NCBI GenBank assembly: GCA_045128515.1
Contig: JBGVRO010000010.1
Span: 4,489-68,488, forward strand
DNA: 64,000 nucleotides
Reading direction: 5' to 3'
Source of the DNA: Eubacteriales bacterium
Lineage (GTDB): Bacteria > Bacillota > Clostridia > Oscillospirales > CAG-272
Shown: piece after piece, positions 5,357 to 55,249 of the stretch
Numbering within the stretch: position 1 is the first letter of the stretch
Layout: the number at the start of each line of letters is the position of its first letter
Made by a program: the position numbers and the translations under genes
Notes under the pieces: generated by a model
What the model saw: the letters and a program-made list of their open reading frames with translations, nothing else
Told to the model about the DNA's origin: nothing
Database searches by the model: none

Positions 5357-6616
5357 TATACAACGGATAACCTCGCAGTAGGTGTAAAGCGAACCAAGGC
5401 AGCATATGCTTGATTTCTTTACATCGGCTTCCTTTATGGCAAGATCTATTGCCTCGTTTACCGATTCGCAGCAGGTTGCCTTGATACCCTTGCTCTCGAA
5501 TATATTGGCATATTCCATAGCCAAGAGGGCTCGCGGATTGGAGGGAGTAATTGTGTATACTCTTGATGCAATCTCGGATATGCTATCGGAGATTTTCTGA
5601 TAATCCTTATCCTTTAGCACTCCGCTTATAACGATCACCCTTTTCTCGGGGAAATATTGCTTAATGCTTTTAACCGCCGCTTCAATACCCTGCGGGTTGT
5701 GTGCGCCGTCAAAAATAACGGTTGGCTCTTTTTTTATGATCTCAAATCTTGCGGGCCACTTTGCATTAGCAAGCCCGACTCTGACCGATTCTTCATTTAT
5801 TTTGATGCCGCCTTGTCGGAGTATATCAACGGCATCCAGCGCAACAGATGCGTTTCTCGGCTGATAGTCGCCGAGAAGCGAGAGCTTTATGTCGTGCCTG
5901 CCTTTATAATTGAATGTCGTTCCTTCAAGCGTCATATCCTCAACAGAGAGGGAGGAATAGTCTGTTTTGTAAAGAATACTTTGCTTTTGATTAGCTTCTT
6001 TGGCTATTATTTCTTCTGCGACCTTGCTTTCACCGCCGAAAAGAACGGGGCAATTCTGCTTTATTATACCGGCTTTTTCTCCTGCAATCTGCTCGATGGT
6101 ATCACCGAGAAAGGCTGTATGATCTACCGAAATTCCGGTAATAATTGACAGAAGGGGAGATTCGATTATGTTGGTTGCATCAAGTCTGCCGCCCATACCT
6201 ACCTCAAGCACAACGATATCACACTTTTCGCGACTGAAATACTCAAAGGCAATGGCGGTGATGAGCTCAAATTCCGTAGGACTGTCCCCCATTTTGTCAG
6301 CCTCTTGCTTGACCTCTGCGGTAAGAGTCGCAAGATATTCGTTTGGAATATTTTCGCCGTTTATTCTAACTCTTTCGTTAAATTCGCGTACGTAGGGCGA
6401 GGTGTAAAGTCCAACCTTGTACCCTTCAGCCATCAGTATGCTTGCTAGCATAGAACAAACAGAGCCCTTGCCGTTAGTACCCGTAACGTGAATGAACTTT
6501 AGCTTCTTCTGCGGATCTCCGATCCTGTGACAAAGCTCGCTTATACGCTCAAGTCCCGGTTTGCAGAAAAAATTTGATACGCTGTGAATATAATTTAAGG
6601 CTTCGTCGTAGGTCAT
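5354..6616 (-). CDS. folC: Folylpolyglutamate synthase / dihydrofolate synthase (Mur-ligase family)
   Basis: P-loop HVTGTNGKGS and overall Mur-ligase layout. It overlaps the folT stop by 4 nt (ATGA). Confidence 0.88.
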   Translation of the reverse strand: MTYDEALNYIHSVSNFFCKPGLERISELCHRIGDPQKKLKFIHVTGTNGKGSVCSMLASILMAEGYKVGLYTSPYVREFNERVRINGENIPNEYLATLTAEVKQEADKMGDSPTEFELITAIAFEYFSREKCDIVVLEVGMGGRLDATNIIESPLLSIITGISVDHTAFLGDTIEQIAGEKAGIIKQNCPVLFGGESKVAEEIIAKEANQKQSILYKTDYSSLSVEDMTLEGTTFNYKGRHDIKLSLLGDYQPRNASVALDAVDILRQGGIKINEESVRVGLANAKWPARFEIIKKEPTVIFDGAHNPQGIEAAVKSIKQYFPEKRVIVISGVLKDKDYQKISDSISEIASRVYTITPSNPRALLAMEYANIFESKGIKATCCESVNEAIDLAIKEADVKKSSICCLGSLYTYCEVIRCI

Positions 6617-7155
6617 ATATCCTTACCTCCGAATTCCTTTATCTGCATACTTATGCCTTTGTTTTTCATAAGAATATAAATGATCGTGCCGTCAATAATT
6701 CCAACGATAAGATAATTTAACATGCGCCATAGCATCAGAACGGTGTAGGGCATATGATAAAAGTCCGCAAGGCCGATGGTTTTTATAAGCACGGATCCCA
6801 TAAGGTGAGCAGAAAAAACAACAATAGCCGTTTTAAGCCAAGAGGGAAGGGGAGTTTTCTTCAGTAAAAGATTTATACCACCGGATACTACACCGATAAC
6901 TGCTGCGCCTACTGTTACCCACGGAATTGGCATCCAACCTACCATTACACAGCCAACAAGGTCGGCAACAATGCCAACGGCAGCGCCTGCAACAGGGCCG
7001 AATGCAATTCCTGCGAAAATAATTGGCATACTCTCAAGGCTGAATCGCATAAACTCGCCCACGTTAATACCAAGGTATTTTCCGCAAACGATGCTTATCG
7101 CCGCAAGCATGGCAAGTGCAGCTACAAATTTTAGATTTTTTAATTGATTTTTCAT
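6613..7155 (-). CDS. folT: ECF transporter S component, folate family
   Basis: A 180-aa protein with multiple TM helices, placed directly behind a THF riboswitch and translationally coupled to folC. Confidence 0.75.
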   Translation of the reverse strand: MKNQLKNLKFVAALAMLAAISIVCGKYLGINVGEFMRFSLESMPIIFAGIAFGPVAGAAVGIVADLVGCVMVGWMPIPWVTVGAAVIGVVSGGINLLLKKTPLPSWLKTAIVVFSAHLMGSVLIKTIGLADFYHMPYTVLMLWRMLNYLIVGIIDGTIIYILMKNKGISMQIKEFGGKDI

Positions 7156-7228: not shown

Positions 7229-7340
7229 CTATTAGGTAACAGTGGGATGCGGATGACACACCGCTTCGGATAATATCCTCCTTCGTCCGAGTGACAACTC
7301 CCCGTTCACTCAGCACTAAACGCGCGCCGTCCTACTCTGT
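7229..7340 (-). promoter_or_regulatory. THF (tetrahydrofolate) riboswitch
   Basis: The minus-strand RNA reads ACAGAGUAGGACGGCGCGCGUUUAGUGCUGAGUGAACGGGGAGUUGUCACUCGGACGAAGG...CGGUGUGUCAUCCGCAUCCCACUGU. It carries the THF-class blocks AGAGUAG, GCGCGUU.AGUG, GUGAA.GGG, GUCAC, ACGAAG and CAUCCGC, and sits in front of folT. Confidence 0.8.
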
Positions 7341-7353
7341 CATGTATGATAGC

Positions 7354-8909: not shown

Positions 8910-10178
8910 TTATTTTTTTAATTCCTCAAATCTTTTTTTCATTGTGGGATTGCCTTTTGTTAACTGCTTGATTGTCAAATTTTGTGCCTTGTTATTCGCA
9001 AGTCGTAGATTGTTTTCGGAGGAGACTAGTGCTGCCTTTGTTTTCAGCAGGTGTGTAATGGTTTTGTCTATCTCCTCGATTGCCTCTTCGAATTTTTCGC
9101 TCGCTATTCTATAATTTCGTGCGAACTTATCCTTAAAGTCGTTCATATCCTCCTCAAAGTGAGAAATGTCGATATTCTGGCTTCTGACAACCGCTAACTC
9201 CTGTCTGTACTGAAGAGAATTTAGGGCGGCATTTCTTAGAAGTGTGATAATGGGAATAAAGAACTGAGGACGAATAACGTACATTTTTGGATATTTGTAG
9301 GAAACGTCCACAATTCCACTGTTGTAAAGCTCGTTATCCGACTCAAGCATAGAAACGAGAACGGCATATTCGCAGCCCTTTTCATTTCTGTCCTTGTCAA
9401 GCTCCTTGAAGAAGTCCTCATTTTTCTTCTTTGTGGCAGTTGCGTCAGCCTCGTTCTTCATCTCGAACATTATTGAAATAAACTCTGTGCCGTCTTCACC
9501 AAAGTCTTTAAAGATAAAGTCACCCTTGCTACCCGTTCTTGCATCGTTGTCCTTTTCAAAATATGCGCTCTGGAAGCCGGTGGCTCTCAGTCTGTTAAAT
9601 TCAATCTGGCAGTGCTGCTCCAGGGTTTCACCAAGCAATTTAGTAGACATTTTGGTCTTAAGATCTCTATAATACTCGATCTGCTCGTCCTTATCCTTAA
9701 GCTTTCTGTTATAGTCCTCAATCAGAGTCTGCTCCTTAAGTATGTAGCCCTGCTTTTCCTTTTCGAGCATTGCTGAAAGCTCTACGATCATCATTTCCTT
9801 TTCGGAAACGGCATCCTTTACCGACAACTCCTTATCCTTATCGCGAAGGGCGAGTTGATGCTTAAGGCTCTCAATCTCCTCATCTTTTTTCCTGAGTTTT
9901 TCTCTGTAATCACTCTCGGATTTGATAACTGCAATGTCGATATCCTTATCTTTCGATTCCTTCATAGACTCGATATCACGCCTAAGTTCTCTGATTTCCT
10001 GATCCTTTTTAAGCATTTCCTTGATGTGCTTTTCGGTGATTCTGCTTGTTTCAAGCTCTACCTTGATTTGAGTTTCTATTTCAAACTCCTTGTTTTTCAC
10101 CTGCTTTAATATCTCTGCGTATCCGCTTTCAGATACTTGAAAAACCTCACCACAGTTTGGGCATTTAATTTCATTCAT
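8910..10178 (-). CDS. DUF2130-family protein: N-terminal zinc ribbon, long coiled coil and a C-terminal PD-(D/E)xK-like (RmuC-like) domain
   Basis: [13 protein letters not shown] (a CxxC ribbon half), a ~170-aa K/E-rich heptad region, then [11 protein letters not shown]...[10 protein letters not shown] (D...E.K pattern). Confidence 0.75.
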
Positions 10179-10179
10179 A

Positions 10180-11295
10180 TTAGTTATCCTCCTTAATTAA
10201 TTTTCCGTAATCTACGAATATTCTTGCTATATCTTTACCCATAAGGTAGAAAATTGCTTCATAGGCAGCCCATTTTTTTGCCTCGGTTTTCGATTCGCAT
10301 ACATATTCTCCTGAGGTCTCGTAAATCCTGTCAATTGTGCAGGAGCACGTCCATTGAGGATTGCCTGACTGAGATTTTTTGCCTTCAGAAAAACGGTATT
10401 CAGGTTTTGGAATAATTCCTTTTTGCCACAACTCTTGGAGCTGATTTATTGCACGCTCGGGATCAATATTGCCTATAGCGTTCTTTATTTTTTCTGCCAT
10501 ATTGTTTGTTTTTCCGATAAACGCCATAGCTCTCTTCGCCGCCATTCTTCGTGCACCGGGTAAAGTTTTGCCGTAGCCGTACGCAAGATAGCTTAACATC
10601 TCGTATCCCAAGTCAATACACACGCCGTAATCAAGCTTTTCAAAATCTGTTGGTATTGACTCCACCTGCATAATCTTGCCGTGAGAGTCAAACCATTGCT
10701 TAAGCTCCTTTTCGTAGTCAGGCTCTGAGGGTAATCCCTCCTCAAGCACCCTGTCAACGTCAAGTAATCGAAGAATGATTTCCTCGAGGATGTTCATATT
10801 CCAGTTGCTGTCAATGGCAACTGCGCCAATAATTGCCTCAAAAAGGTCCTCCTTGACCGAGGCCTCGTTTTGTACGCCCCCTTCAATGTCACTTTTTCCC
10901 ATAATTAAGTAATCGTGGAATCCACATTTTTCGGTGGCTGCGGCAAGGGAAGAACGCTGTACCAGCGCTATTTTCAGTTCGCTAAGCTCTGATTCGTCAA
11001 GTTCACTTCTGAATTGATTTCTTTCAACGTATTTTTGACAATTTTGATCTGCTACTTTGAGATATGCCTCGATGATTTCGGGACTGATTTCTTTGCGCTT
11101 GTAGTATCCTGAGATGTGTTTTACAATTATCATACCAAGCGCACTGTCGCCGATAAATTCAAGCACCTCGTTGTTTTCGCCACCGTTTTCAGCGGTGTAG
11201 GAGCGTCTTGTAAACGCCTGCTCAAGGAGAGTTTTGTTGTTGAATTCGTATCCGAGCGTTTTTTCTACCTCGGAAAAGTTAGTTGCTTTTGTCAT
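10180..11295 (-). CDS. Atypical ribonuclease III-domain protein with two dsRBD-like modules
   Basis: RNase III signature [13 protein letters not shown] and [13 protein letters not shown]. Two C-terminal dsRBD-like segments follow (..[22 protein letters not shown] and ..[18 protein letters not shown]). The start was set at the ATG at 11295 behind aaggaggtgc. The stop lies 1 nt from the DUF2130 start. Confidence 0.78.
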
Positions 11296-15857: not shown

Positions 15858-15976
15858 TATGAATTGTCCTTCGGACATGAATTGAACCGTTGGTTCATGA
15901 ATTGCCTACGGCATGAATTGTGCGTTGCACATTAATTGACGGCAAAGCCGTCATGAATTGCACCTAGGGTGCATTA
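15858..15976 (-). repeat. Hairpin array A: six perfect variable hairpins joined by the constant linker CA-TGAAT-TG
   Basis: Plus strand: tatgaattg|tccttcgga|catgaattg|aaccgttggtt|catgaattg|cctacgg|catgaattg|tgcgttgca|cattaattg|acggcaaagccgt|catgaattg|cacctagggtg|cattatt. The array abuts the stop codon at 15977. Confidence 0.9.
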
Positions 15977-16420
15977 TTATTCTACAACAACTGTGCCATC
16001 TTCCAGAACGGTGATGGTCATGCCGTTCTGAACGTACTCAAGGAACTCGTCACCAAGGTTGTCGATAACGGGCATCTTGATGCCGTCAAGCCAAACGGAC
16101 GCGAGAATAGAGCCTGCTGCAGCAAGGCTGTCGATAGACTTTGAGAAGAGCATACATGCGGGCTGACGCTCCATAGCGCATGCACAGTAGAGTACAAGAC
16201 CGCCTGTGGTAGAGCCGATTGTCTGGGGGAGACAGAGAGCAGAGCCTGCAAGAGGAAGCTTGTAGATCTCGGGGTTAGACTGGTCGGAGCACTTTACCTG
16301 CTTGTCACCGAACTGAAGACCCATCTGCATAGATGCAAGGGTGTTAAATCCGCCGTGAGTAACTACTGCGGTAGCCTTTGCGGTACCGGGAGTGATAATT
16401 CTACCTTTAAACTGACGCAT
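15977..16420 (-). CDS. Aconitase X swivel-domain subunit (DUF126)
   Basis: A 147-aa protein with GRIITPG.A.A...THGGFN and CLPQTIGSTTG motifs, immediately downstream of the DUF521 subunit. Confidence 0.78.
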   Translation of the reverse strand: MRQFKGRIITPGTAKATAVVTHGGFNTLASMQMGLQFGDKQVKCSDQSNPEIYKLPLAGSALCLPQTIGSTTGGLVLYCACAMERQPACMLFSKSIDSLAAAGSILASVWLDGIKMPVIDNLGDEFLEYVQNGMTITVLEDGTVVVE

Positions 16421-16422
16421 TA

Positions 16423-17697
16423 TTACTTACCTCCTTTTGTAATTGCAACGAGAATCTCGTCGTCGGAAAGATACTTTGCAGAGGTGTATGTACGAAGCTT
16501 GTTAGAGGATGTAATAACAGGCATAGTCTTGCAAAGAGGGTTATTCATATACATAAGAGGGCAGATGTAGGATGTGATAACACCGCACTTCTTAAGTCTC
16601 TCAGCATACTCGGTCTTGTTGAATACCTCAAGCACGCCGGGAGCTGCTGTAAATACGGTAGGAATAACAACCTTGGAGTTACCTGCTGCCTTAAGGCCTG
16701 CCTCAACCTTGTCTGTCCAGCTCTTAAGCTGCTCAAGGCTCATATGGGGACAACCCATGAAGCAAAGCTTGGGGGTAGCATCGGGATTCTTCCAGATAAC
16801 AGGGTAGGAGTCCTTTACTCTCTGAAGCTCTGCATCGTCGATAACGTAAACCTGCGCGCCCTCAGCAATAAGAGACTCGCCGTGAAGCTTTGCCTCGGGG
16901 GTGAGGTCGTGAATGTGGTAAAGACCAACTGCGCCGTTGGATGCAGTCGCAGCGCCAAAGTCCTTAAGATATGTGCAAGCAGCATCGTCAAGCTCGTTGC
17001 CAAGATACTGGTTAAGGCCGTAAACGTAGGGAACGTCCTCCATAACCTTCATACCGATAGCACTACCGAGAAGCTGTGCATCAGGCTTCTTTGTGGTCTC
17101 AACCTTGATGATCCAGGTAGCCTTTCTACCCTCATCGGTAAGAAGACCGAAGTTAGGAACGTAGCCTGCAATAGAACCCATGATATCCATAATACCCGAG
17201 TTTCTGTTACATCTTGCACCGAGAACAGAGTTCGCGTATACTACGGCAGAGGACTCGGACCAAGAGAGAATGTCACCCATCTTGGGCTTGTTACCAACCT
17301 CGTCCATGTAGCAGGTACAGGTGAAGGCATTCTTATCCATAAGACCAAGCTTGTCCAGCTGAACCTCATAGGTTGCCTGCTTGGTGTACATGAATTTGTC
17401 GAATACGAAATTCTGAAGGAAGTTTGCAGGAACGTTTTTGTCTACGGGACGGGGGTCCATGGAGAACTTCTGTCCGCTTGTAACGCCTGCGTCAATGAGT
17501 CTCTGCATAAGGTCATAAACAGGAGCCATAACCTTAAGACCAAAGCTTGTTACCAGGTGGTTATATTCGCTTGTTACAGCTACAAGACTGTCGGCGCCAA
17601 ATGTCTCGCCGTACATAACGAGGGTCTTCATAACCTTCGCCATGGTTTCGCCATGCTTGCCGTCAAGCATTTCCTGCTGGTGAGCAGTAAGTTGCAT
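16423..17697 (-). CDS. Aconitase X catalytic subunit (DUF521)
   Basis: A 424-aa protein beginning L...Q..MLDG..GE, with Cys-containing segments (CNRNSG, GCPHMS) typical of the AcnX large subunit. It is paired with the DUF126 subunit. Confidence 0.8.
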   Translation of the reverse strand: MQLTAHQQEMLDGKHGETMAKVMKTLVMYGETFGADSLVAVTSEYNHLVTSFGLKVMAPVYDLMQRLIDAGVTSGQKFSMDPRPVDKNVPANFLQNFVFDKFMYTKQATYEVQLDKLGLMDKNAFTCTCYMDEVGNKPKMGDILSWSESSAVVYANSVLGARCNRNSGIMDIMGSIAGYVPNFGLLTDEGRKATWIIKVETTKKPDAQLLGSAIGMKVMEDVPYVYGLNQYLGNELDDAACTYLKDFGAATASNGAVGLYHIHDLTPEAKLHGESLIAEGAQVYVIDDAELQRVKDSYPVIWKNPDATPKLCFMGCPHMSLEQLKSWTDKVEAGLKAAGNSKVVIPTVFTAAPGVLEVFNKTEYAERLKKCGVITSYICPLMYMNNPLCKTMPVITSSNKLRTYTSAKYLSDDEILVAITKGGK

Positions 17698-17737
17698 AAT
17701 ATTTCTCCTTTTTGTAAAGTGAAGTTGTCATATTGAC

Positions 17738-17851
17738 GTTTGCATAAGCAAACATTTCATCCGCCTTGGCGGATTTCATCCTGTATTACAGGATTTCATT
17801 CGGGCATTTGCCCGAATTTCATTGTATGAAGATCGTTTAGATCTTCATACA
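17738..17851 (-). repeat. Hairpin array C: five perfect hairpins joined by AT-TTC-AT linkers
   Basis: gtttgc-ataa-gcaaac | atccgcc-tt-ggcggat | atcctgt-att-acaggat | attcgggc-attt-gcccgaat | tgtatgaagatc-gttta-gatcttcataca. The last stem is built from the final four codons and the stop of the enoate-reductase gene. Confidence 0.88.
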
Positions 17852-19906
17852 AACGTCCCATGCGCCCCAGATAACCGTTCTGAGGTTGCCAACGTTCTGC
17901 GCGTCACCGATGATGTGAACGTGCTTAGACTTCTTTGCGATGGGTGCGGGGTTGTAACCAACAGAGAGAACTACGGAGTCGCAAGAAATTTCACTTGTAT
18001 TTCCGTTCTTGTCTGCGATAACAACAGCGCCGTCCTTGATCTCCTTAACGCCTGTTTCAAGATGTACAGCCACCTTGTTTGCGTTGAAGAAGTCACGAAG
18101 GTAGGAGGTGTTTGCAAGACAAATACCGGGAGTTGTGATAAGGTCGTCCTGCATTTCAACAACGACAGGCTCCTTGCCCTGAAGGTAGAGATCGTATGCG
18201 ATCTCACAGCCTGTAAGACCGCCGCCGATAACTACTACCTTGTTGCCAACGGTCTTGTTGCCGAGAAGGTAATCAACAGCCTCAACAGACTTTTCTACAC
18301 CGGGAATAGGAATTCTCTTTGCCTTAGCACCGGTAGCAATAATAATTTCATCAGCCTTGATAGCCGAAATATCCTTAATCTCGGTATTAAGCTTAACCTC
18401 GATAGGAAGCTTCTGTACCTCTCTGATATACCATGCGATAAGCTCGCGGTCCTTCTCCTTGAAGGAGGGAGCAGCAGCTGCTACGAATACACCGCCAAGC
18501 TTGTCGGTCTTTTCGTAAATGGTAACCTTGTGTCCGCGCTTTGTAAGGAGAATTGCTGCCTCCATACCGCCGATACCACCACCGATAACCGCAACGTTTT
18601 TAGCCTTCTTTGCAGGCTTCACGTAGTACTTCTTGGACTGCATGGTCTCGGGATTAAGCGCACAGCGTGCAAGACCCATAGTGTCGGTAAGGTCCTGGGT
18701 GTTGTAGTGACCCTTGGAGGAGGAGAAGTTGAAGCAGCCTGCATGACAGCAGATACAGGGACGGATGTCCTCGATTCTGTCCTCAATAAGCTTGGTAACC
18801 CACTCTCCGTCTGCAAGGAACTGTCTTGCAATACCAACACCGTCGATTCTGCCTTCAGCAACGGCCTTAGCACCAACGTCAGGCTCCATACGGCCTGCAC
18901 ATACTACGGGGATGTCAACGAACTTCTTGATGTGAGCAACGTCGTCAAGGTTACAGTTCTGGGGCATGTACATCGGGGGATGTGCCCAGTACCAGGAGTC
19001 ATATGTACCGTTGTCTGCGTTAAGCATATCATAGCCTGCGTCCTGAAGATACTTTGCAGCTCTCTCGGACTCTTCCATGTTACGACCAACCTCGATGTAC
19101 TTCTCACCGGGAACGGCACCCTCGCGGAAGCCCTTCATCTTGGACTCTACCGAGTAACGGAGAGAAACGGGGAAGTCCTCGCCACACTCAGCCTTGATTG
19201 CCTTAACAACCTCTGCTGCAAAGCGGTATCTGTTCTCAAAGCTGCCACCGTATTCGTCGGTACGCTTGTTGAAGAACTCGATTGCGAACTGGTCAAGAAG
19301 ATAACCCTCATGTACTGCGTGTACCTCAACACCGTCAACACCTGCGTCGCGGCAGAGCTTTGCGGTCTTTGCAAATGCCTCGATGATCTCGTGAATCTGG
19401 TGCTTGGTCATTTCGGGACAGATGATGTCGGGTGCCCAACGAGCAGGCTGCTCGGAGGGAGATGCAAGCTCGTGGCTTGTATCAAGAATGGGCTTAAGAA
19501 TTGCTCTTGTAAACTTGTTCTTATGGAGAGGGCCTATAAGCTCGGTGATCGCCCAGGAGCGTCCCATACCTGCGGTAAGCTGAATGAAGAGCTTTGCGCC
19601 TGTCTTGTGGATCTCGTCCATAAATTCCTTAAGTTCCTCGAACATCTTGGGATTCTGCCAGAGCCACTTGCCCCAGAAGGTATCTCTAAGGGGAGCGATA
19701 CCGGGGATGATAAGACCTACGTTATTGTTTGCTCTCTCAAGGAAAAGCTTTGCAGCCTCCTTGTCAAAGCCACAGCCGGTCAGCTCAAACCAACCAAACA
19801 GCGACGTACCGCCCATAGGACACATAACGATACGGTTTTTGATCTCTACGTTGCCTATTTTCCAAGGGGTAAACAGGGCTTCGTACTTAGGATCTATGTT
19901 TGCCAT
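17837..19906 (-). CDS. 2-enoate reductase / 2,4-dienoyl-CoA-reductase-like flavoprotein (OYE FMN domain, 4Fe-4S, FAD/NAD(P) domain)
   Basis: N-terminal OYE-like segment (I.NRIVM.PMG), the Cys cluster CICCHAGC and the dinucleotide fold VAVIGGGIGGMEAA. Confidence 0.85.
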   Translation of the reverse strand: MANIDPKYEALFTPWKIGNVEIKNRIVMCPMGGTSLFGWFELTGCGFDKEAAKLFLERANNNVGLIIPGIAPLRDTFWGKWLWQNPKMFEELKEFMDEIHKTGAKLFIQLTAGMGRSWAITELIGPLHKNKFTRAILKPILDTSHELASPSEQPARWAPDIICPEMTKHQIHEIIEAFAKTAKLCRDAGVDGVEVHAVHEGYLLDQFAIEFFNKRTDEYGGSFENRYRFAAEVVKAIKAECGEDFPVSLRYSVESKMKGFREGAVPGEKYIEVGRNMEESERAAKYLQDAGYDMLNADNGTYDSWYWAHPPMYMPQNCNLDDVAHIKKFVDIPVVCAGRMEPDVGAKAVAEGRIDGVGIARQFLADGEWVTKLIEDRIEDIRPCICCHAGCFNFSSSKGHYNTQDLTDTMGLARCALNPETMQSKKYYVKPAKKAKNVAVIGGGIGGMEAAILLTKRGHKVTIYEKTDKLGGVFVAAAAPSFKEKDRELIAWYIREVQKLPIEVKLNTEIKDISAIKADEIIIATGAKAKRIPIPGVEKSVEAVDYLLGNKTVGNKVVVIGGGLTGCEIAYDLYLQGKEPVVVEMQDDLITTPGICLANTSYLRDFFNANKVAVHLETGVKEIKDGAVVIADKNGNTSEISCDSVVLSVGYNPAPIAKKSKHVHIIGDAQNVGNLRTVIWGAWDVCMKI

Positions 19907-20118
19907 AGTAAAAATCCTTTCTTTTTATTTTATTTTACTCAATCGTAAACATTATACAGAAAAAAAGGCATATTGTCAACTATTTCACAATTATTTTTAT
20001 TTATTTTACACAAAATAATAAAATATTTGTAAAAAAGAATTTTTATCTCTTTTTTATATTGCAAAGCATTACAAAATGTGATATTATGTTAAGTAACTTG
20101 TATTTTGTAAAGGAGGCG

Positions 20119-23923: not shown

Positions 23924-24631
23924 ATGAGAATAGATAAGCTTTTGTCCGAGCTTGGCATCGCCTCGCGTAAGGAGGCGGCTAAGGTTGCGAAATCGGGTGG
24001 AATCATCATAGACGGCATAGCCGTAAGAGATGTGTCAAAGCATATCGACCCCGAAAAATCCAAGGTGATCTATCTCGGTCGGGAGATAGTGTATCAAAAG
24101 TACACCTACGTTATGCTGAACAAGCCTACGGGATACGTCAGCGCAACAGATGACAAGAGTTTGCCCTACGTTACCGAGCTTTTGCCCGAGGAACTGAGAC
24201 GACGTGAGCTTTTCCCGGTGGGACGTCTTGACCGCGATACGGTTGGTCTTATGATACTTACCAACAACGGTGTTCTCGCTCATTCGCTTTTATCCCCCAA
24301 GCACCACGTAACAAAAGAGTATTATTTCACTGCTGCCGAGCCTGTAAGGGAAGGCGCAGAGGAGAATTTTAAGGATGGTGTGACCCTTGCCGATGGGTAT
24401 GAATGTAAGCCTGCTGAGCTATATCTCTCCGAGGATAGACGAGAGGGAAGAATTGTGCTTACCGAGGGTAAATATCACCAGATAAAGCGTATGATAGCAG
24501 CGCAGGATAACCGTGTTACAAGCCTTGAGCGAATTTCCTTTGGTGGAATTTTGCTTGATCGAACACTTGCTCGCGGTGAGTGGCGCTATCTTACTAAAGA
24601 AGAAATTATTATCCTTGAGATGCAAGGATAA
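23924..24631 (+). CDS. rsuA: Pseudouridine synthase, RsuA/RluB family, with an S4 domain
   Basis: S4 domain MRIDKLLSELGIASRKEA and the catalytic motif GRLDRDTVGL. The start was set at the ATG at 23924 behind ggaggt. Confidence 0.85.
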   Translation: MRIDKLLSELGIASRKEAAKVAKSGGIIIDGIAVRDVSKHIDPEKSKVIYLGREIVYQKYTYVMLNKPTGYVSATDDKSLPYVTELLPEELRRRELFPVGRLDRDTVGLMILTNNGVLAHSLLSPKHHVTKEYYFTAAEPVREGAEENFKDGVTLADGYECKPAELYLSEDRREGRIVLTEGKYHQIKRMIAAQDNRVTSLERISFGGILLDRTLARGEWRYLTKEEIIILEMQG

Positions 24632-24634
24632 TAA

Positions 24635-24823
24635 TGTTTCGCAAAGCGAAACAATTCATGCACGAAGTGCAATTCATGGCGATAGCCAATTCATGCCATA
24701 GGCAATTCATAAAAGAATGAATTGAAGCCACAGGCTTCATGAATTGAGATCTTTGATCTCATGAATTGATGCTACACATCATGAATTGAAACCATGTTTC
24801 ATGATTTGAAGGCACAGCCTTCA
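24635..24823 (+). repeat. Hairpin array B: ten perfect hairpins. The same linker as array A is present in both orientations, flipping at a central 8-bp palindrome.
   Basis: Four units use CAATTCATG linkers. A central caattcat-aaaaga-atgaattg follows, then five units use CATGAATTG linkers. The array fills the gap from 4 nt after the rsuA stop to the tex RBS. Confidence 0.9.
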
Positions 24824-24848
24824 TTAACAATATAAGGAGAAAAAACAA

Positions 24849-27038
24849 ATGGACATTTTAAAGACTCTTGCTGAGGAATTTAAAATCAAGGAAGAGCAGG
24901 TTAAGGAAACCGTTGCTCTTATCGACGAGGGAAACACCATTCCCTTCATTTCACGTTACCGTAAGGAGGTTACAGGCGGTCTTGATGACGCTACCCTTCG
25001 TGACCTTAACGATAGACTTAACTACCTTCGCAAGATGGAGGAAAGACGCGAGGAGATCTCTAATCTCATAGACGCACAGGGAAAGCTTACTCCCGAGATC
25101 ACCTTTGCCCTTAACAATGCAAAGACTCTTGTAGAGCTTGAGGATATTTATCTTCCTTACAGACCCAAGAGAAAGACCAGAGCATCTGTTGCGCGTGACA
25201 AGGGACTTGAGCCTCTTGCTAATTACATTATGGAGCAGAAGGACGTATACGATCCCGAGATCGCCGTATATGCTGAGCAGTTTATCGTTATTTCCGATGA
25301 AAAGGATAAGGCTGTTCCTACCGTAGAGGCGGCTCTGCAGGGCGCAAGCGATATTATCGCCGAGGATATTTCCAACAATGCCGAGATCAGAAAGATGCTC
25401 CGTGAGTTCACTATGAGAAACGGCAGCCTTTCCTCTAAGGGTACAACCGAGGAAACAAGCGTATATGAAAATTACTACGACTTCTCCGAGCCTATCAAAA
25501 AGCTTAAGGGACACCGCGTTCTTGCTATCAACCGTGGCGAGAAGGAAGAATTCCTTAAGGTTGCGGTTACCCTGCCCGAGGAGGACGGCATAGCGCAGAT
25601 CGTTGCTAAGGTCGTTACCAACAAGCAGTCTCCTGCACTTTCTTACCTTATGGCAACCATTCGCGATGCATACGACAGACTTCTGTTCCCTGCAATCGAG
25701 CGTGAGGTTCGTACTACACTCTTCGACGATGCTTGCGAGGGTGCGCTTAAGGTATTCTCCGAGAACCTTCGTAACCTTCTTCTTGCAGCTCCCATTAAGG
25801 GCAAGACCGTTCTTGGTTACGACCCCGGTTATGCTCACGGCTGTAAGCTTGCAGTAGTTGATAAGACAGGCAAGGTGCTTGACACCGCCGTTATTTACCC
25901 CGTAAAGCCCAGAGAGGATATTGAGAGATCCAAGGCCGTTGTACTTCGCCTTATTAAGAAGCATAACGTTGATATTATTTCTATCGGTAACGGTACCGCA
26001 TCCCGTGAGAGCGAGGCGTTTATTGCAGAGCACGTTATCCGTGACGCAAGCTGTCCCAAGACTGTAAAGTATACTATCGTTTCCGAGGCGGGCGCTTCGG
26101 TTTATTCTGCATCTAAGGTTGCAACCGAGGAATTCCCCGACTTTGACGTAATGCAGAGATCTGCTATTTCTATTGCAAGAAGAATTCAGGATCCCCTTGC
26201 AGAGCTTGTTAAGATCGAGCCTAAGGCTATCGGTGTTGGTCAGTATCAGCACGATATGAAGCAGGCAAGACTTACCGAGGCTCTCGGTGGCGTAGTTGAG
26301 GGCTGTGTAAACGGTGTTGGTGTTGACGTTAACACTGCATCCTACTCTCTCCTTTCTTACGTATCGGGTATCAATACCACCGTTGCAAAGAATATCGTTA
26401 AGTATAGAGAAGAGCATGGAGAGTTCAAGACCCGTGCGCAGATCCTTAAGGTTCCGAAGCTTGGTGACAAGGCGTTCACACAGTGCGCAGGCTTCCTTCG
26501 TATCCACGACGGTAAGCAGGTGTTTGACTCCACCGGCGTTCATCCCGAGTCCTATGCAATCGCAGAGGATCTTCTTAAGCGTTTCGGCTTCTCTACCGAG
26601 GACGTAAAAAATAATAATCTCGCTCTCCTTCGCTTCAAGGCAGAGCAGTACGGCATCGCCAAGCTTGCTCGCGAGCTTGGCTGTGGTGAGCCTACTCTTG
26701 AGGACATTATCTCCGAGCTTGAGAAGCCCGGAAGAGATATCCGTGACGATGCTCCCGCACCTATCCTTTCCACCGACGTTCTCGACATCAATGATCTTAA
26801 GCCTGATATGCAGCTTAAGGGTACGGTTAGAAACGTTGTTGATTTCGGTTGCTTCGTTGATATCGGAGTTCACCACGACGGCCTTCTTCACATCTCCGAG
26901 ATGAGCGATAAGTTTATTAAGCACCCCTCCGAGATGTTCAAGACAGGCGACGTAATCGAGGTTCGTATCAAGGACGTTGACGTTAAAAAGCATAGAATTT
27001 CTCTTACCCGTAAGGGAATGAATACCTCTAAGGGTTAA
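24849..27038 (+). CDS. tex: Tex-like transcription accessory protein (YqgF/HhH/S1 domains)
   Basis: N-terminus ..TIPFISRYRKE.TGGLD and a C-terminal S1 domain (G.V.NVVDFG.FVDIG...DGL.HIS). Confidence 0.93.
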   Translation: MDILKTLAEEFKIKEEQVKETVALIDEGNTIPFISRYRKEVTGGLDDATLRDLNDRLNYLRKMEERREEISNLIDAQGKLTPEITFALNNAKTLVELEDIYLPYRPKRKTRASVARDKGLEPLANYIMEQKDVYDPEIAVYAEQFIVISDEKDKAVPTVEAALQGASDIIAEDISNNAEIRKMLREFTMRNGSLSSKGTTEETSVYENYYDFSEPIKKLKGHRVLAINRGEKEEFLKVAVTLPEEDGIAQIVAKVVTNKQSPALSYLMATIRDAYDRLLFPAIEREVRTTLFDDACEGALKVFSENLRNLLLAAPIKGKTVLGYDPGYAHGCKLAVVDKTGKVLDTAVIYPVKPREDIERSKAVVLRLIKKHNVDIISIGNGTASRESEAFIAEHVIRDASCPKTVKYTIVSEAGASVYSASKVATEEFPDFDVMQRSAISIARRIQDPLAELVKIEPKAIGVGQYQHDMKQARLTEALGGVVEGCVNGVGVDVNTASYSLLSYVSGINTTVAKNIVKYREEHGEFKTRAQILKVPKLGDKAFTQCAGFLRIHDGKQVFDSTGVHPESYAIAEDLLKRFGFSTEDVKNNNLALLRFKAEQYGIAKLARELGCGEPTLEDIISELEKPGRDIRDDAPAPILSTDVLDINDLKPDMQLKGTVRNVVDFGCFVDIGVHHDGLLHISEMSDKFIKHPSEMFKTGDVIEVRIKDVDVKKHRISLTRKGMNTSKG

Positions 27039-27097: not shown

Positions 27098-29278
27098 TTA
27101 TTTCCATATGGTAGGCTTCCCGAGTTGGCTATAGTACCAGTATCTTCCATCACCCTCGGGCTTGGATTCACTGTAATAATATCTTTTGAAGACGTACTCA
27201 AACTCGGTGTTAAGGCTATCGATGGTTATACTGTCCCAGCTTTCGGGAGTACCATTGTAAAAGATGCGTGTAAATTGCGCGCAATGCTGAAAGGCACCCT
27301 TGCCAATTTTGGATATTCCACTTCCAAGAATAATAGTATTTATTTTGTTGCATTCGTTAAACGCATTTTCTTCAATAGTAGTTACGCTGTCCGGAATAGA
27401 CAGATTGCAAAGCGAATAGCAAAAGGCAAAGGCATTTTTACCAATAGTCTCGACTCCCTCGGATATGATCACTGTATCAAGATAAGCACCGCAATATATA
27501 AATGCCCCTTCGGGAATGTGCTTAAGTCCTGAACCAACGGTTACCTTCTCCAAATAATAACAAGAAGCAAACGCCCACATGCCCATAGAGGTAACTGTGT
27601 CGGGAATGGTTAATTCTACAAATCCACCGTCCATAAAGGCAAATTCACCGATAGATACCACGCTTTCCGAAAGATTAAGCTTTTGAAGCTCAACACAACC
27701 GGCAAAGGCGTAGTCGCCTATATCTGTCGGACCGAGAATGTTTACACTTTGAAGCTGTTTGCAATCGCGGAAGGCAGCGTGGCCGATATTGGTCAAAGTG
27801 GTGGGAAGGGTAACGCTCTTTATAGAGTCCATTCCGTAGAAGGCATAGTCGAGAATAACCTTTACACCCTCGGGGATGATAAGCTCTCCGTTACTCTTGC
27901 CGCTGGGATAACAGATAAGGGAATAGAGATCCTTTGTATATATCACACCGTCGATAGATGTGAAATTAGGGTTATCGGTATGTGCGGTTATTTTTTCAAG
28001 TTGGTAGCAGTTATTAAATGCGCGATCACCTATGGTAGCAAAGCTTTTTCCAAGAGAAACACTCTTTAGATTGTCGTTGCTGTCAAAGCAATTTTCTCCT
28101 ATGCTGACAAGACTGTCTGGAAATACAACGGCGGAAATATTGCAATCTCTGAATGCGCCGTTTCCAATGGATACAAGGCCTTCGCAAAATTCTACTGTTC
28201 CAAGGTTAAAGCAATAATTAAAGGTATTATCCTTTATCTCGGCAATCGAGCTACCAAACTTAATTGCTTTTATGCGGTTACAGTGATAGAACGCGTTGCT
28301 GCCAACATAAGTAACGCTGTCGGGTATTGTCGAAATTGTTATACTCTCGCACTCATTGAAGGCATTATCGCCAATATACTCAATTTGTTCCGGAAGAGAT
28401 GAAATTTCGAGAATAAAGTTGCGGTAGAAGGCGTTGCTTCCGATGTAGGTTGCGTTTTCCATGTGCCACACGTATCTAAGATAGGGGCACTCGGAGAATG
28501 CGTTATTTCCAATATAGCTTATATTATCTGTAAGTGAGATAGAGTAAAGCTTACTGTTATTATTGAAAACACCGTCGGAGATATGAGTGACAGGTACGCC
28601 TTCGTACTCGGGCAAAATTCTTACTCGTCCGTTGCTTCCGGTATATTCGGTAACGATAGCGTAGCTTCCATCGGTGGATAATTCGTATATTACACCTTCG
28701 GTGTAAACCACCTTTGTTCCGCATACGGTACAGATTCCTGTCTCATCCTCTATATGCTCTATGCGATCGTTAGATTGTCCACAGTTTTTGCATAAGTTCC
28801 AATGAGCATTACCGTCGCATGTGTATTCCTCAGCATACGCGTGTTGTGCGAGGAATCTTTCATATTCAAGCTTGATTTCACCACAGTCGCTACAGGTCAT
28901 AGTCTTATATCCGAGCTCTGTGCATGTGGAGTACTTGTAGTCTGTTCTCTTGAAATTGTGACTCTTTACGTCGGTCACCATCTCCTTATGACCGCAATTA
29001 TGGCAGGTCTTGGAGTAGATCCAGTCGATACAGCTGTCGCCTTCTTCCTGACTCTCATATACAGTCTGGCCGTAGAGATGATTGGCGGTGGGGATGCTCT
29101 CGCTTTCCAATATTTTATTGCAGTGTATGCATTTCTTGGTCTGAAGACCCTCGATAGAACAGGTCGCTTCCTTTTCAATTCTCCATTCTCCGGGCTCACA
29201 GCTGTGGTTGTTACAGGAGCAGAGAAGGAGAATAAGGAATAAACAGGTCATTATGATAAAAAATAATTTATGTTTCAT
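27098..29278 (-). CDS. BspA-type leucine-rich-repeat lipoprotein with an N-terminal Cys-rich module
   Basis: The start is at MKHKLFF. The signal has a lipobox (LLLCSC). Cys pairs are present (CIHCNK, CHNCGH, CSDCGE). About 20 repeats of ..I(G/E).(N/Y)AF..C..L..I.IP.SV follow. Confidence 0.8.
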   Translation of the reverse strand: MKHKLFFIIMTCLFLILLLCSCNNHSCEPGEWRIEKEATCSIEGLQTKKCIHCNKILESESIPTANHLYGQTVYESQEEGDSCIDWIYSKTCHNCGHKEMVTDVKSHNFKRTDYKYSTCTELGYKTMTCSDCGEIKLEYERFLAQHAYAEEYTCDGNAHWNLCKNCGQSNDRIEHIEDETGICTVCGTKVVYTEGVIYELSTDGSYAIVTEYTGSNGRVRILPEYEGVPVTHISDGVFNNNSKLYSISLTDNISYIGNNAFSECPYLRYVWHMENATYIGSNAFYRNFILEISSLPEQIEYIGDNAFNECESITISTIPDSVTYVGSNAFYHCNRIKAIKFGSSIAEIKDNTFNYCFNLGTVEFCEGLVSIGNGAFRDCNISAVVFPDSLVSIGENCFDSNDNLKSVSLGKSFATIGDRAFNNCYQLEKITAHTDNPNFTSIDGVIYTKDLYSLICYPSGKSNGELIIPEGVKVILDYAFYGMDSIKSVTLPTTLTNIGHAAFRDCKQLQSVNILGPTDIGDYAFAGCVELQKLNLSESVVSIGEFAFMDGGFVELTIPDTVTSMGMWAFASCYYLEKVTVGSGLKHIPEGAFIYCGAYLDTVIISEGVETIGKNAFAFCYSLCNLSIPDSVTTIEENAFNECNKINTIILGSGISKIGKGAFQHCAQFTRIFYNGTPESWDSITIDSLNTEFEYVFKRYYYSESKPEGDGRYWYYSQLGKPTIWK

Positions 29279-29399: not shown

Positions 29400-30926
29400 T
29401 TAGATAACTATGAAGCTACAGCTACCTGCAGGAATTTTGTATTCGCCTGCGGAAACTGTGTCACCGTCAAGGCAGGGAAGTGCATTGTTCTCACCGAGAG
29501 TGAGAGGTCTGCCGTTAAGGTACATAACCTTGTTTCTCATATTGCCGTTGCCGGAAAGAGTGTAAACGGTCGCATCCTTGGGAAGGTTAACGGTAGTTTC
29601 ATCGGTAAGAGAGTTGTTTACTACGAGATAGCAGTAACCATCCTTGCCGTCCTTACGGGAGTGAGCGTAAACGTGTGCGCCCTCGGTCTGGGGAGCTTCA
29701 GCGCGATAGCAGGTGTTGCCCATAAGACGCTGCCAGAGCAGAACTGCAAAGTAGTTGGGTCTTGGATCGAAGGAGCCGTGCTGAAGGAAGCCGTAGTCGG
29801 AGGAAGCAAGGGTGTTGTGGAAGATAACACCGTCGGTGAGAGTACAGAAGCTGCCAAGCTCGTTGAGAGTTCTGAGTACGTCAAGGTAGGTGGATGCCCA
29901 TGTGTCTCCGCCTCCGCCTGCGTCACCCGACTCGGTAACCCACATCTCGCCGCCGGGAACGTACTTATCACGTGCGGGAATGTTCATATAGCAGATGCCG
30001 GGAGCAACCTGAAGATATGCATCGGTGTGAGCTGCCTCTGCAGGCCAGTGACCGGTAGGCATCATGCCTGCAAGTCTCTCGGAAATTCCGTTGTAGTAGT
30101 GGTAGGAATATACGTCCATCTTTACCTGATGACCGCGCATAAGGTCGTGAACTGTACCCATGGTCATCATATTGCCGATGCCCGAGCCCATCTTTGCCAT
30201 AGGAGACTCCTCAATAGAGGTGTCGGTCATACCTGTGTTACAGGGACCTACGATAAGGCAGTTGGGATAGTTCTCTCTTACCCAAGCGTTTGCAATATCC
30301 TGGTCACGAACGTAATCCTCAAAGGTGTAGCCAACGGGTGCGCCGGAGATCTGAAGCATGTTAGGCTCGTTCATGAACTCGAATGCATCGATAGAGCCGC
30401 CAAGCTCCTCGGTAAGAGCAAAGAGCTTTTTGATCTGTGTAAGGTCAAGGGGTGCGCCGTCCTTATGGTCGCCTGCGCAGTTAGATGCGGAAACAAGAAG
30501 CTTGCCACCAACAGTCTTTACAAAATTAACGATATTTGCCCACTGCTCGCGGGTAAGCACGCTCTGGTATCCCTCGGGTGCCTTGCCACCGGTAGTGCCG
30601 TCGAAATCATAGTATGTCTTGGTTGCCCAAGTGCCGGATACTCTTACCCAAACAGGTCCAAGCTCCTTTGCAAGAGAGATAAGCTTTTCGTTGGTAGTAT
30701 CAATGGGGGGATAGTACTGCATAAGGCCTGCCATTGCGGTGTGATTCTGGAAACCGCCCTCAAGCTTTGGGAACTCCTCTGTACCTGCGATCTGTCCCTC
30801 GGTATATGCCTTCCAGAAGGTACCGCCGGTAACCTCTGTCATCTCTACGTTGTAGGACATAAGTCGGGGATTAATGCTGCGGATAGCCTGAAGCCCGTCA
30901 GCCTTAAATTCAAGATAATGTGCCAC
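29400..30926 (-). CDS. Clan GH-A glycoside hydrolase, GH79-like (beta-glucuronidase/heparanase family), cytoplasmic
   Basis: A (beta/alpha)8-type FEFMNEPN acid/base motif, a later WVTESG-type nucleophile segment (MWVTESGDAGGGG) and a C-terminal beta-sandwich. There is no signal peptide. The family assignment is from memory only. Confidence 0.55.
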   Translation of the reverse strand: MAHYLEFKADGLQAIRSINPRLMSYNVEMTEVTGGTFWKAYTEGQIAGTEEFPKLEGGFQNHTAMAGLMQYYPPIDTTNEKLISLAKELGPVWVRVSGTWATKTYYDFDGTTGGKAPEGYQSVLTREQWANIVNFVKTVGGKLLVSASNCAGDHKDGAPLDLTQIKKLFALTEELGGSIDAFEFMNEPNMLQISGAPVGYTFEDYVRDQDIANAWVRENYPNCLIVGPCNTGMTDTSIEESPMAKMGSGIGNMMTMGTVHDLMRGHQVKMDVYSYHYYNGISERLAGMMPTGHWPAEAAHTDAYLQVAPGICYMNIPARDKYVPGGEMWVTESGDAGGGGDTWASTYLDVLRTLNELGSFCTLTDGVIFHNTLASSDYGFLQHGSFDPRPNYFAVLLWQRLMGNTCYRAEAPQTEGAHVYAHSRKDGKDGYCYLVVNNSLTDETTVNLPKDATVYTLSGNGNMRNKVMYLNGRPLTLGENNALPCLDGDTVSAGEYKIPAGSCSFIVI

Positions 30927-54454: not shown

Positions 54455-55249
54455 ATGGACAAAAATTTACTTAAAAAGATCGGGGATATTGCAGCTAACG
54501 TTGTAATGTACATTTTCCTTGCCGTGTGCATTCTGTCAGTTATTATGACCGTGTTCGGCAAGAGAGATGCGGACGGCACCGTCGAGATCTTCGGACATCA
54601 GATGCGAATCGTAGTTTCCGACTCAATGGCAAAGTCCGAGTTTACCGACGTTTCGGATTACAAAATTAAGCATATTCCCATTAACACTATGGTGTTTATC
54701 AAGCTTGTGCCTGATGATCCCGTCCTGGCGGATCAGTGGTATGACGATATTGAGATCGGTGACGTTCTCACCTTCCGTTACGTATACACAAATCAGGTTA
54801 CGATAACCCACCGTGTTGTTGATATTAAAGAAAAGGATACCGGCGGCTACCTCATTTATCTTGAGGGAGATAACAAAAATTCGGACTCCGAGCTGCTTAA
54901 GCAGACGATCGATACCTCGATCCCCAACAGCACCAATTACGTAATTGGTAAGGTCGTTGCAACGAATTTCCTGTTCGGTTTATTCCTTAGCATTATTAGA
55001 AAGCCTATTGGCGCAATTTGTATTATCATTCTTCCTTGTTTCATCATTATTCTGATCGAGGTGCTTAAGATCGTGCGTGTGCTTAACGCCGACAAAAAGC
55101 AGCAGAATCAGGACGAAATGGCGAAAAAGGAAAGCGAGCTTGAGGAGCTTCGTCGTCAGCTTGCAGCTCTGCAGAACGCACAGCCTGCTGAAAATTCTGA
55201 TGAGCCGACACCTGCAAGTGAATCTAACGAAGATAATAAGGAGGTATAA
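54455..55249 (+). CDS. sipW: Second SipW-like (S26B) signal peptidase I
   Basis: N-terminal TM, Ser box VVSDSMAKS, GDVLTF, His box ITHRVVDI, GDNKNSD, a second TM and an acidic/coiled tail. The start is at the ATG at 54455 (MDKNLLKK). Confidence 0.8.
   Translation: MDKNLLKKIGDIAANVVMYIFLAVCILSVIMTVFGKRDADGTVEIFGHQMRIVVSDSMAKSEFTDVSDYKIKHIPINTMVFIKLVPDDPVLADQWYDDIEIGDVLTFRYVYTNQVTITHRVVDIKEKDTGGYLIYLEGDNKNSDSELLKQTIDTSIPNSTNYVIGKVVATNFLFGLFLSIIRKPIGAICIIILPCFIIILIEVLKIVRVLNADKKQQNQDEMAKKESELEELRRQLAALQNAQPAENSDEPTPASESNEDNKEV

Follow-up and report, generated by a model that had tools for sequence, protein, structure and literature searches.

A Gut-1 hairpin array in a Clostridia operon spacer and its place in a wider family of variable palindromes on constant linkers

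The hairpin arrays considered here come closest, among described systems, to the Gut-1 motif and to repetitive extragenic palindromes (REPs). Weinberg et al. described Gut-1 in 2010 on the basis of metagenomes from the human gut, assigned it no function and judged it probably not to be cis-regulatory (PMC2864571). The 2010 alignment holds GUGAUAU variants, together with convergent GUGAUAU...AUAUCAC arrays located between convergent genes (PMC2864571). REPs are high-copy extragenic palindromes found mostly downstream of open reading frames (ORFs), between unidirectional or convergent genes, clustered and often arranged as inverted doublets; they are transcribed with neighbouring genes, vary between strains, and have been proposed as mRNA stabilisers (PMC3733652; PMC3116915). 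Their palindromes are 20-40 bp in length, conserved in sequence and provided with a GTAG or CGTC tag, the GTAG REPs being linked to RAYT transposases (PMC3733652). Here, a hairpin array (array C) was analysed that lies between two genes of one operon in a 64-kb window, the window being the whole analysed stretch of contig JBGVRO010000010.1 from a ruminant-gut Clostridia metagenome-assembled genome (MAG). The upstream gene encodes an enoate/2,4-dienoyl-CoA reductase-like protein (ER) and the downstream gene the large subunit of aconitase X (AcnX); further arrays in the same window, termed A and B, were compared with it. Full-text literature searches found Gut-1 treated in the 2010 paper alone, and they turned up no account of arrays whose hairpins combine variable stems with constant linkers.

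Array C occupies positions 17852-17738 of the minus strand, which is the mRNA strand. It comprises five perfect Watson-Crick hairpins with AUGAAAU linkers (ATTTCAT on the plus strand), an arrangement already given by the initial annotation and recovered here both by an inverted-repeat search and by a separate hairpin scan. Hairpin 1 (17822-17852) has a perfect 13-bp stem with the 5-nt loop UAAAC, and is followed by hairpin 2 (17798-17817, 9-bp stem), hairpin 3 (17778-17794, 8-bp stem), hairpin 4 (17759-17774, 7-bp stem) and the distal hairpin 5 (17738-17753), which has a 6-bp stem and reads GUUUGC-UUAU-GCAAAC. The core of the array (17754-17822) is formed by four linkers, at 17822-17816, 17799-17793, 17779-17773 and 17760-17754, alternating with hairpins 2-4. 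Read along the mRNA, the layout begins GUU UGU AUG AAG AUC UAA AC GAUCUUCAUACA AUGAAAU UCGGGCAAAUGCCCGA AUGAAAU CCUGUAAUACAGG and continues AUGAAAU CCGCCAAGGCGG AUGAAAU GUUUGCUUAUGCAAAC GUCAAUAUGACAACUUCACUUUACAAAAAGGAGAAAUAUUAUG. Once the closing A-U pairs are counted, GAA alone remains unpaired in each linker. The window holds 18 copies of ATTTCAT where 14.8 are expected, so that the non-random part is not the word itself, it is the local cluster of four copies inside 69 nt of array C. RNA folding of the 163-nt stretch of array C gave -61 kcal/mol, compared with -28.6 +/- 3.7 kcal/mol for shuffles (z = -8.8), and the opposite strand folded nearly as well (z = -8.35), because every pair is Watson-Crick; on this model either strand would be able to form five independent stem-loops. 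The array lies 2 nt past the ER stop codon and 27 nt ahead of the acnX ribosome-binding site (RBS). The hairpins had been thought to fill the whole spacer; instead, a 27-nt unstructured native stretch (17737-17711) separates the last hairpin from the RBS AAGGAG (17710-17705), and the native spacer to which both belong (17698-17737, minus strand) is common to filled and empty alleles. Array C was also present in independent assemblies (loci L001, L243 and L269-271) and in one metatranscriptome contig, and is therefore no assembly artefact.

By score and by architecture, array C is a member of the Gut-1 class. The Rfam model (RF01706), the consensus of which is three hairpins spaced by GUGAAAU, matches 17749-17824 on the minus strand over its full length (positions 1-77 of 77) with 56.0 bits against a gathering score of 50 (E = 2e-8 for the window), and the allele of locus L004 also matches, with 53 bits. 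Array C resembles Gut-1 in its run of at least three consecutive short hairpins spaced by (G/A)UGAAAU or GUGAUAU and in its gut origin, and some seed loci of Gut-1 have convergent arrays; it differs in being intercistronic, in coming from a ruminant-gut Clostridia MAG and in having five units rather than three. A viral contig (L074, IMGVR_UViG_3300029489_000289) carries a Gut-1 match of 77.7 bits at 9790-9866, adjoining three tRNA genes, and a second viral contig (L049) carries a GTGATAT array; these were the two true arrays among the viral loci screened for three copies of GTGAWAT. The arrays may thus occur in phages too, or in host fragments binned as phage. Three copies of ATGAAAT were likewise sought in metagenomes, where three true arrays (L288, L381 and L389) were found among 120 loci listed. 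The scans of sequence collections with 7-nt linkers consisted mostly of noise, and no census was drawn from them.

Gut-1 itself is, on sequence comparison, the (G/A)UGAAAU dialect of a larger family in which variable perfect palindromes are carried on a constant linker of 7-9 nt. The linker consensus is N-Y-G-A-W-R-T, with the dialects ATGAAAT, GTGAAAT, GTGATAT, ATGATGT, TCGATAT and CATGAATTG, and the family is widespread in gut and rumen Clostridia MAGs. Most of it lies below the Gut-1 threshold: array A reaches 23.7 bits and array B is not matched at all, which leaves the CATGAATTG dialect outside every Rfam family. Array A (15860-15975, minus strand) consists, in mRNA reading, of six TG...CA hairpins on CAAUUCAUG linkers, and opens TAA-TAAUG right behind the stop codon of the acnX small-subunit gene. 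Array B (24605-24825, plus strand), between an rsuA-like pseudouridine synthase gene and tex, is a divergent doublet with a stop-spanning 13-bp hairpin, followed by B1, four units on CAATTCATG, and B2, five inverted units on CATGAATTG. In arrays A and B each hairpin begins with TG and ends with CA, and both A and B1 open TAA-TAATG behind a stop codon. The kinship of array C with arrays A and B, asserted in the initial annotation, is supported by a bridging linker, CATTTCATG, located at the array A site of other strains (L272), which is one base away from CAATTCATG and from ATTTCAT. The tex gene (S1-domain, YqgF-like; 24849-27038, plus strand) begins 24 nt past B2, which places B2 either in the tex leader or in a read-through transcript of rsuA.

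The CATGAATTG linker is present in 10 copies in the window against 0.92 expected, and four arrays per 64 kb correspond to about one per 16 kb. Seven short hairpins at 54850-54965, a possible sixth array, lie inside a predicted gene and have no common linker, and were taken as chance. Scanning of 185,579 species genomes for three CATGAATTG linkers yielded at least 120 stretches. Among the matches listed, the true arrays were almost all in gut and rumen Clostridia MAGs, namely Oscillospiraceae, Acutalibacteraceae, Christensenellales and Eubacteriales; those in Planctomycetota, Collimonas, Prevotella, Ferruginibacter and a gammaproteobacterium were discarded as plain tandem repeats. The same loci also hold arrays on GTGATAT, TCGATAT, GCGATAT, GTGAAGT, CGTGAAATA and other linkers, with the same polarity of linker and loop. 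Their common architecture has defined ends (AATGAATTG ... CATT), frequent inverted doublets and a single polarity rule, by which the loops are T-N-C on the N-Y-G-A-W-R-T strand and G-N-A or G-N-N-A on the other; the loop GAA was counted 67 times against 2 for its complement TTC, GCA 42 against 1, GTAA 17 against 0 and GTCA 13 against 0. The units measure 11-31 nt, and 220 different sequences were present among 310 units, none of them common to arrays A, B and C. On two contigs of one MAG (L137 and L159), near-identical arrays with similar flanks were observed in which only the loops differ (GTA/GAA, GTAA/GAA), an indication that the array was duplicated along with a larger segment and that loops change rapidly.

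The behaviour of the ER-acnX spacer was followed across contigs coding for an identical or near-identical AcnX (identity at least 93%). Empty spacer alleles occur in four versions of 40-49 nt (L245, L248-250, L251-260 and L278-283). The ATGAAAT array of the window is present in L001 and, with diverged loops, in L243 and L269-271, and a second ATGAAAT/GTGAAAT array, in L272-277, has other inner hairpins and an identical last unit; this unit, hairpin 5, is followed by GU, like the end of GTGATAT-type arrays. Arrays of the latter type have three units in L002, five in L242, and five other units in L004, L244, L246, L247 and L265-267, the L242 array being that of L002 with two internal units added. 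In L268 the spacer holds a 250-nt ATGATGT/ACATCAT doublet. The AcnX proteins of L002 and L004 are identical to that of the window, yet a different array is found in each, and every filled allele retains the RBS together with the native 3' portion of the spacer. The site after the small-subunit gene is equally changeable: array A is kept in six strains and is elsewhere shorter, on another linker such as CATTTCATG, or replaced by other hairpin inserts or by a 7-mer microsatellite. Where array A is lacking in L242, L243, L245, L261-264 and L270, two to five copies of the 7-mer AATTCGA/AATTCAA stand in that place, and the AATTCGA microsatellite resembles the linker CAATTCA without its hairpins. 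In L261-264, where AcnX is 93% identical, the acnX pair lies behind a GH31 glycoside hydrolase gene with a 21-nt spacer and no arrays, showing that the pair has changed neighbours. These alleles show that change in the DNA, at hot spots immediately 3' of stop codons, adds, removes, resizes and exchanges arrays. The ER-acnX spacer is among these hot spots, and array C is therefore dispensable for the operon.

Hairpin 1 is built in part from coding sequence. Its 5' arm (17852-17840) consists of the codons (V)-C-M-K-I, its loop holds the stop codon TAA (17839-17837), which had previously been assigned to the stem arm, and the last ER codons recur, inverted, as an added 3' arm (17834-17822). These last codons are native, because the empty alleles carry them, and the ER C-terminus, ..W(D/K)V(C/A)MKI*, is unchanged in array-free strains. 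In three allele classes, ending TGT ATG AAG ATC, GCA ATG AAA ATC and GCG ATG AAA ATT, the 3' arm fits the strain's own last codons, with five positions changed on both sides; the pair table was set by hand, since MAFFT put the alleles out of register. Translation of the last four codons has to unwind this largest stem, and the earlier statement that a terminating ribosome must melt it stands. Stop-spanning hairpins are markedly enriched beside arrays: over all fetched loci, perfect ones of at least 9 bp were found in 4 of the 38 genes flagged as abutting an array and in 11 of 754 others, at least seven of these 11 also lying beside an array on reading of the listed loci. In array B, a perfect 13-bp hairpin (24605-24635, plus strand) is made wholly of the last codons and the stop of the rsuA-like gene; both of its arms are native codons, and the ending ..ILE.QG* is kept in homologues. 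The tail of this RsuA-like protein reads IIILEMQG*, compared with ID/EILEKQG* in most relatives, and two residues seem to have been changed in favour of the stem. For hairpin 1, either a templated inverted copy made when the array was laid down, or strong selection for a stem around the stop codon, may account for the match.

Resident copies do not appear to decay freely, since stems and linkers are kept while loops and flanks drift. Across the three allele classes, 1 of 53 linker columns in the alignment was variable, as were 9 of 232 in the stems and 36 of 283 in the flanks, and the loops changed most in the oldest allele class. Compensated changes were observed, CCGTC/GACGG having become CCGTT/AACGG and CCGCC/GGCGG having become CCGC/GCGG. 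Perfect pairing characterizes 170 of the 220 distinct units of the CATGAATTG type. Each of the 113 arrays analysed lies between genes. A stop codon directly adjoins 34 of them, in many cases as the TGA of the first linker itself or as a TAA shortly ahead of that linker; in 25 of these 34, the YGAWRU strand is that of the mRNA. Array C and all filled alleles at its site have this majority orientation, and arrays A and B1 have the contrary one. Of 47 single arrays, 29 agree in polarity with the local GC skew, taken as a stand-in for the direction of replication; this is weaker than the agreement with the abutting gene, and replication direction as the determinant of polarity is not supported. 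The gene calls in the fetched loci come from a simple caller using ORFs and codon bias, which reproduces the Pfam-supported genes of the window and is otherwise unvalidated.

The operon is read from the minus strand. It opens with a promoter at 19951-19979 (TTGACA-17-TATAAT, 12 of 12 matches), upstream of the ER gene (17837-19906, 689 aa), the product of which is an OYE-type FMN oxidoreductase fused to a pyridine-nucleotide-disulphide oxidoreductase domain (Pfam Oxidored_FMN, 4e-55; Pyr_redox_2, 1e-39). The genes for the large subunit of AcnX (aconitase X, DUF521; 16423-17697, 424 aa, ATG at 17697-17695; Pfam AcnX, 2.6e-91) and for the small, swivel subunit (15977-16420, 147 aa; AcnX_swivel_put, 2.7e-8) follow, and arrays C and A indeed flank the two. 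The sole strong terminator of the region, an intrinsic one with a 13-bp stem and a U-run, lies downstream of array A at 15853-15824; the ER-acnX spacer has a weak promoter-like match of 9/12. Array C is present on an RNA contig that joins the end of ER and acnX: in run X27, a contig of 1503 nt (16556-18058, depth 111) extends from acnX through array C into ER, in agreement with the intercistronic position claimed beforehand. The metatranscriptome data are assembler contigs, which show presence and not transcript ends or strand. Strain variants within the RNA runs are located in loops, and several spacer alleles occur in single rumen samples, as seen from a joint at 17670/17837 in run X25 and a loose end at 17720 in run X26.

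Several other features of the window were recorded. An RNase III-like protein of 371 aa (10180-11295, minus strand), in which the RNase III domain is accompanied by a long insertion and, at the C-terminus, by a dsRNA-binding motif, is a possible candidate for a processor of long stems. A tetrahydrofolate (THF) riboswitch (7238-7341, minus strand, 75.8 bits) stands directly upstream of the gene for an ECF-transporter S component (6613-7155, minus strand), which probably belongs to the folate family of transporters. Large ORFs are found at 47401-53295 (plus strand, 1964 aa), 2-2947 (plus strand, partial, 981 aa), 31052-33511 (minus strand, 819 aa) and 29400-30926 (minus strand, 508 aa), the last three without a Pfam match at 1e-5, and a BspA-type leucine-rich-repeat protein is encoded at 27098-29251 (minus strand).

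Our preferred reading, which is plausible and is held tentatively, is that array C is a dynamic repeat of the DNA, comparable to REPs and bacterial interspersed mosaic elements (BIMEs), which rides on the operon mRNA as a generic stem-loop or processing module. On the mRNA it would act as a gene-end module in the REP/BIME manner: the hairpins could block 3'-to-5' exonucleases and so shield the upstream cistron, they could insulate or separate the two cistrons, and the single-stranded linker could be a site read by some factor. RNase Y-type endoribonucleases prefer a G|A(A/U) cut adjoining a hairpin, and an enzyme of this type, cutting at that place in the linker, would be the most concrete candidate reader. 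The first hairpin, as an inverted copy of the last codons, would be opened by each terminating ribosome. A number of observations weigh against this reading. The empty alleles show that the array is not strongly required, and the depths of the X27 contigs across the operon, 111-151, are about equal, contig depth being a poor measure of expression. Wobble-type mismatches are few, 17 in about 1150 pairs (12 G.T and 5 A.C, small counts), and such a near-lack of wobble is unusual for an element constrained only as RNA, given that ordinary RNA helices tolerate G.U. Arrays favour one orientation to the neighbouring gene (25 to 9) without adhering to it strictly, arrays A and C being opposite within one operon. 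Moreover, the stable G-N-A and G-N-N-A loops are on the strand that is usually not the mRNA, and of 80 arrays flanked on either side by a called gene, 12 sit between divergent genes.

It is also possible, if rather doubtful, that an as yet undescribed system acting on DNA builds the arrays, adding to the 3' ends of genes new units that consist of a perfect palindrome and then a fixed linker, with the gene's last codons sometimes serving as template for the first unit; Gut-1 as an RNA would then be a misread dialect, with its covariation arising from the alignment of non-homologous hairpins. A purely selfish or mutational DNA repeat, made by fold-back, template switching or an enzyme acting on single-stranded DNA hairpins, with no host function and only an incidental effect on mRNA, is somewhat unlikely, and is nevertheless a serious rival in view of the mixed orientation, the few wobbles and the location of the G-N-A loops on the usually untranscribed strand. 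Such a repeat would fit the presence, absence and wholesale replacement of arrays among near-identical strains, the birth of units as perfect palindromes almost free of wobble pairs, and the apparently templated copy of the flanking codons. The arrays keep a polarity of their own, in linker and G-N-A loop, whatever the gene direction, and position 3 of the tetraloops shows no purine preference (34 R, 36 Y). The loops d(C-GNA-G) and d(C-GNNA-G) are classic hyper-stable mini-hairpin loops of DNA, and the convergent doublets recall REPINs. Junk should decay, however, whereas the resident copies keep their linkers and stems relative to the flanks; self-templated correction could keep the stems but would not explain the linkers. 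Polarity also tracks the abutting gene better than it does GC skew (29 to 18). Furthermore, no transposase, RAYT (Y1 HUH transposase), integrase or reverse transcriptase was found among the 42 of 44 predicted window proteins that were scanned against Pfam.

The initial annotation had favoured a cis-regulatory device of this operon, uncoupling the translation of ER and acnX or giving the operon segments different stabilities. The intercistronic position, the stop codon inside the first hairpin, the lack of a terminator on the sense strand, the arrays on both sides of acnX and the conserved stems would all suit such a device. It is nonetheless distinctly unlikely, since strains with the same genes, or with AcnX at least 93% identical, have either no array or another one in this spacer, the same arrays stand beside unrelated genes in many species, and the acnX RBS with its 27-nt leader lies outside the array and is identical in empty alleles. 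The near-equal depth of the RNA contigs also argues, weakly, against strong segmental differences. Sites for recombination of single-stranded DNA, of the attC type or like HUH targets, by which cassettes such as acnXAB could be exchanged, are improbable, and more so than an operon device. It is a hallmark of attC that palindromes of variable sequence, together with a short conserved core, stand at gene 3' ends and often overlap the stop codon; the arrays flank the acnX pair, this pair has another upstream neighbour (GH31) in L261-264, and the loop types are those stable as DNA. Against this, many units stand in tandem without genes between them, the R and L boxes and extrahelical bases of attC are lacking, the context in L261-264 is entirely free of arrays, and neither an integrase nor a HUH gene was seen among the window proteins scanned.

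An independently transcribed, trans-acting small RNA (sRNA) is very improbable: Rfam types Gut-1 as "Gene; sRNA" and Weinberg et al. judged the motif probably not cis-regulatory, but the sRNA-gene label does not suit array C, because of its place inside an operon between a stop codon, 2 nt away, and an RBS, 27 nt away, its lack of a promoter or terminator of its own and the RNA contig across both genes, and in addition unit number and sequence vary freely and the hairpins of different copies are non-homologous, so that the family covariation would stem largely from the alignment of unrelated hairpins. Termination or attenuation of transcription between ER and acnX, for which G+C-rich hairpins right after a gene might speak, has equally little credibility, since no U-tract follows any array C hairpin, as noted at the outset, and no terminator-like site lies on the mRNA strand within 17738-17852, while the only such call is antisense (17798-17817, plus strand) and the RNA contig passes through the array. 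Candidates set aside were DNA uptake sequences and IHF, CodY, cre and parS boxes, whose consensus sequences show no evident match; back-up stop codons in the linker, which the TCGATAT and GCGATAT dialects do not contain; and a T-box-like display of codons in the loops, for which no supporting structure was seen.

Compared with the motif of 2010, what is new here is the superfamily, the spacer hot spot, the match of the first hairpin to codons, and the constraint on stems and linkers. Gut-1, in Rfam since 2010 without organism or function, is now placed in an operon spacer of gut and rumen Clostridia, and such arrays account for a large share of the intergenic DNA in these genomes. The interest of the locus lies less in this operon than in what it reveals about the whole family. 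Because the arrays differ between strains with identical flanking proteins, they could be used to tell strains apart at a fine scale in metagenomes of gut and rumen, and the array alleles are natural experiments on intercistronic structure and operon expression. The recurrent inverted copies of last codons and the few wobbles point to an undescribed palindrome-making process at gene ends. A caution for RNA discovery also follows from these arrays: unrelated hairpins aligned on a constant linker make every pair look compensated.

Set beside the known systems, the arrays of the preferred REP/BIME-like reading share with REPs an extragenic position, high copy number, location downstream of ORFs, clustering, common doublets and strain variation. 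They differ in that the palindrome is variable and the spacer constant, where REPs have a conserved palindrome; in having no GTAG or CGTC tag, their constant part being N-Y-G-A-W-R-T; and in the direct, not alternating, orientation of their units. The mycobacterial interspersed repetitive units (MIRUs), variable-number tandem repeats of mycobacteria, are similar in having tandem units in operon spacers that abut stop or start codons with a strain-polymorphic copy number, but they are direct repeats of 40-100 bp, conserved in sequence and with small ORFs, and not variable hairpins. With attC sites the arrays have in common variable palindromes, a short conserved core and a position at or overlapping the 3' ends of ORFs, and attC is thought to act as a folded single strand; attC sites, however, measure 55-141 nt, are imperfect, with R and L boxes and extrahelical bases, occur once per gene and need IntI, whereas the array units of 11-31 nt have perfect stems and no GTTRRRY core, and no integrase is among the window proteins scanned. 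The likeness to CRISPR consists in a constant repeat with variable inserts, a polymorphic number of units and a distal unit common to several alleles. The array linker, however, is 7-9 nt compared with repeats of 23-47 nt, the inserts are perfect palindromes of 9-31 nt and not foreign protospacers (non-palindromic spacers of 26-72 nt), and the arrays lie in operon spacers with no leader and with no cas domains among the window proteins scanned. In architecture they are the inverse of CRISPR, with a short constant spacer and variable, self-complementary inserts.

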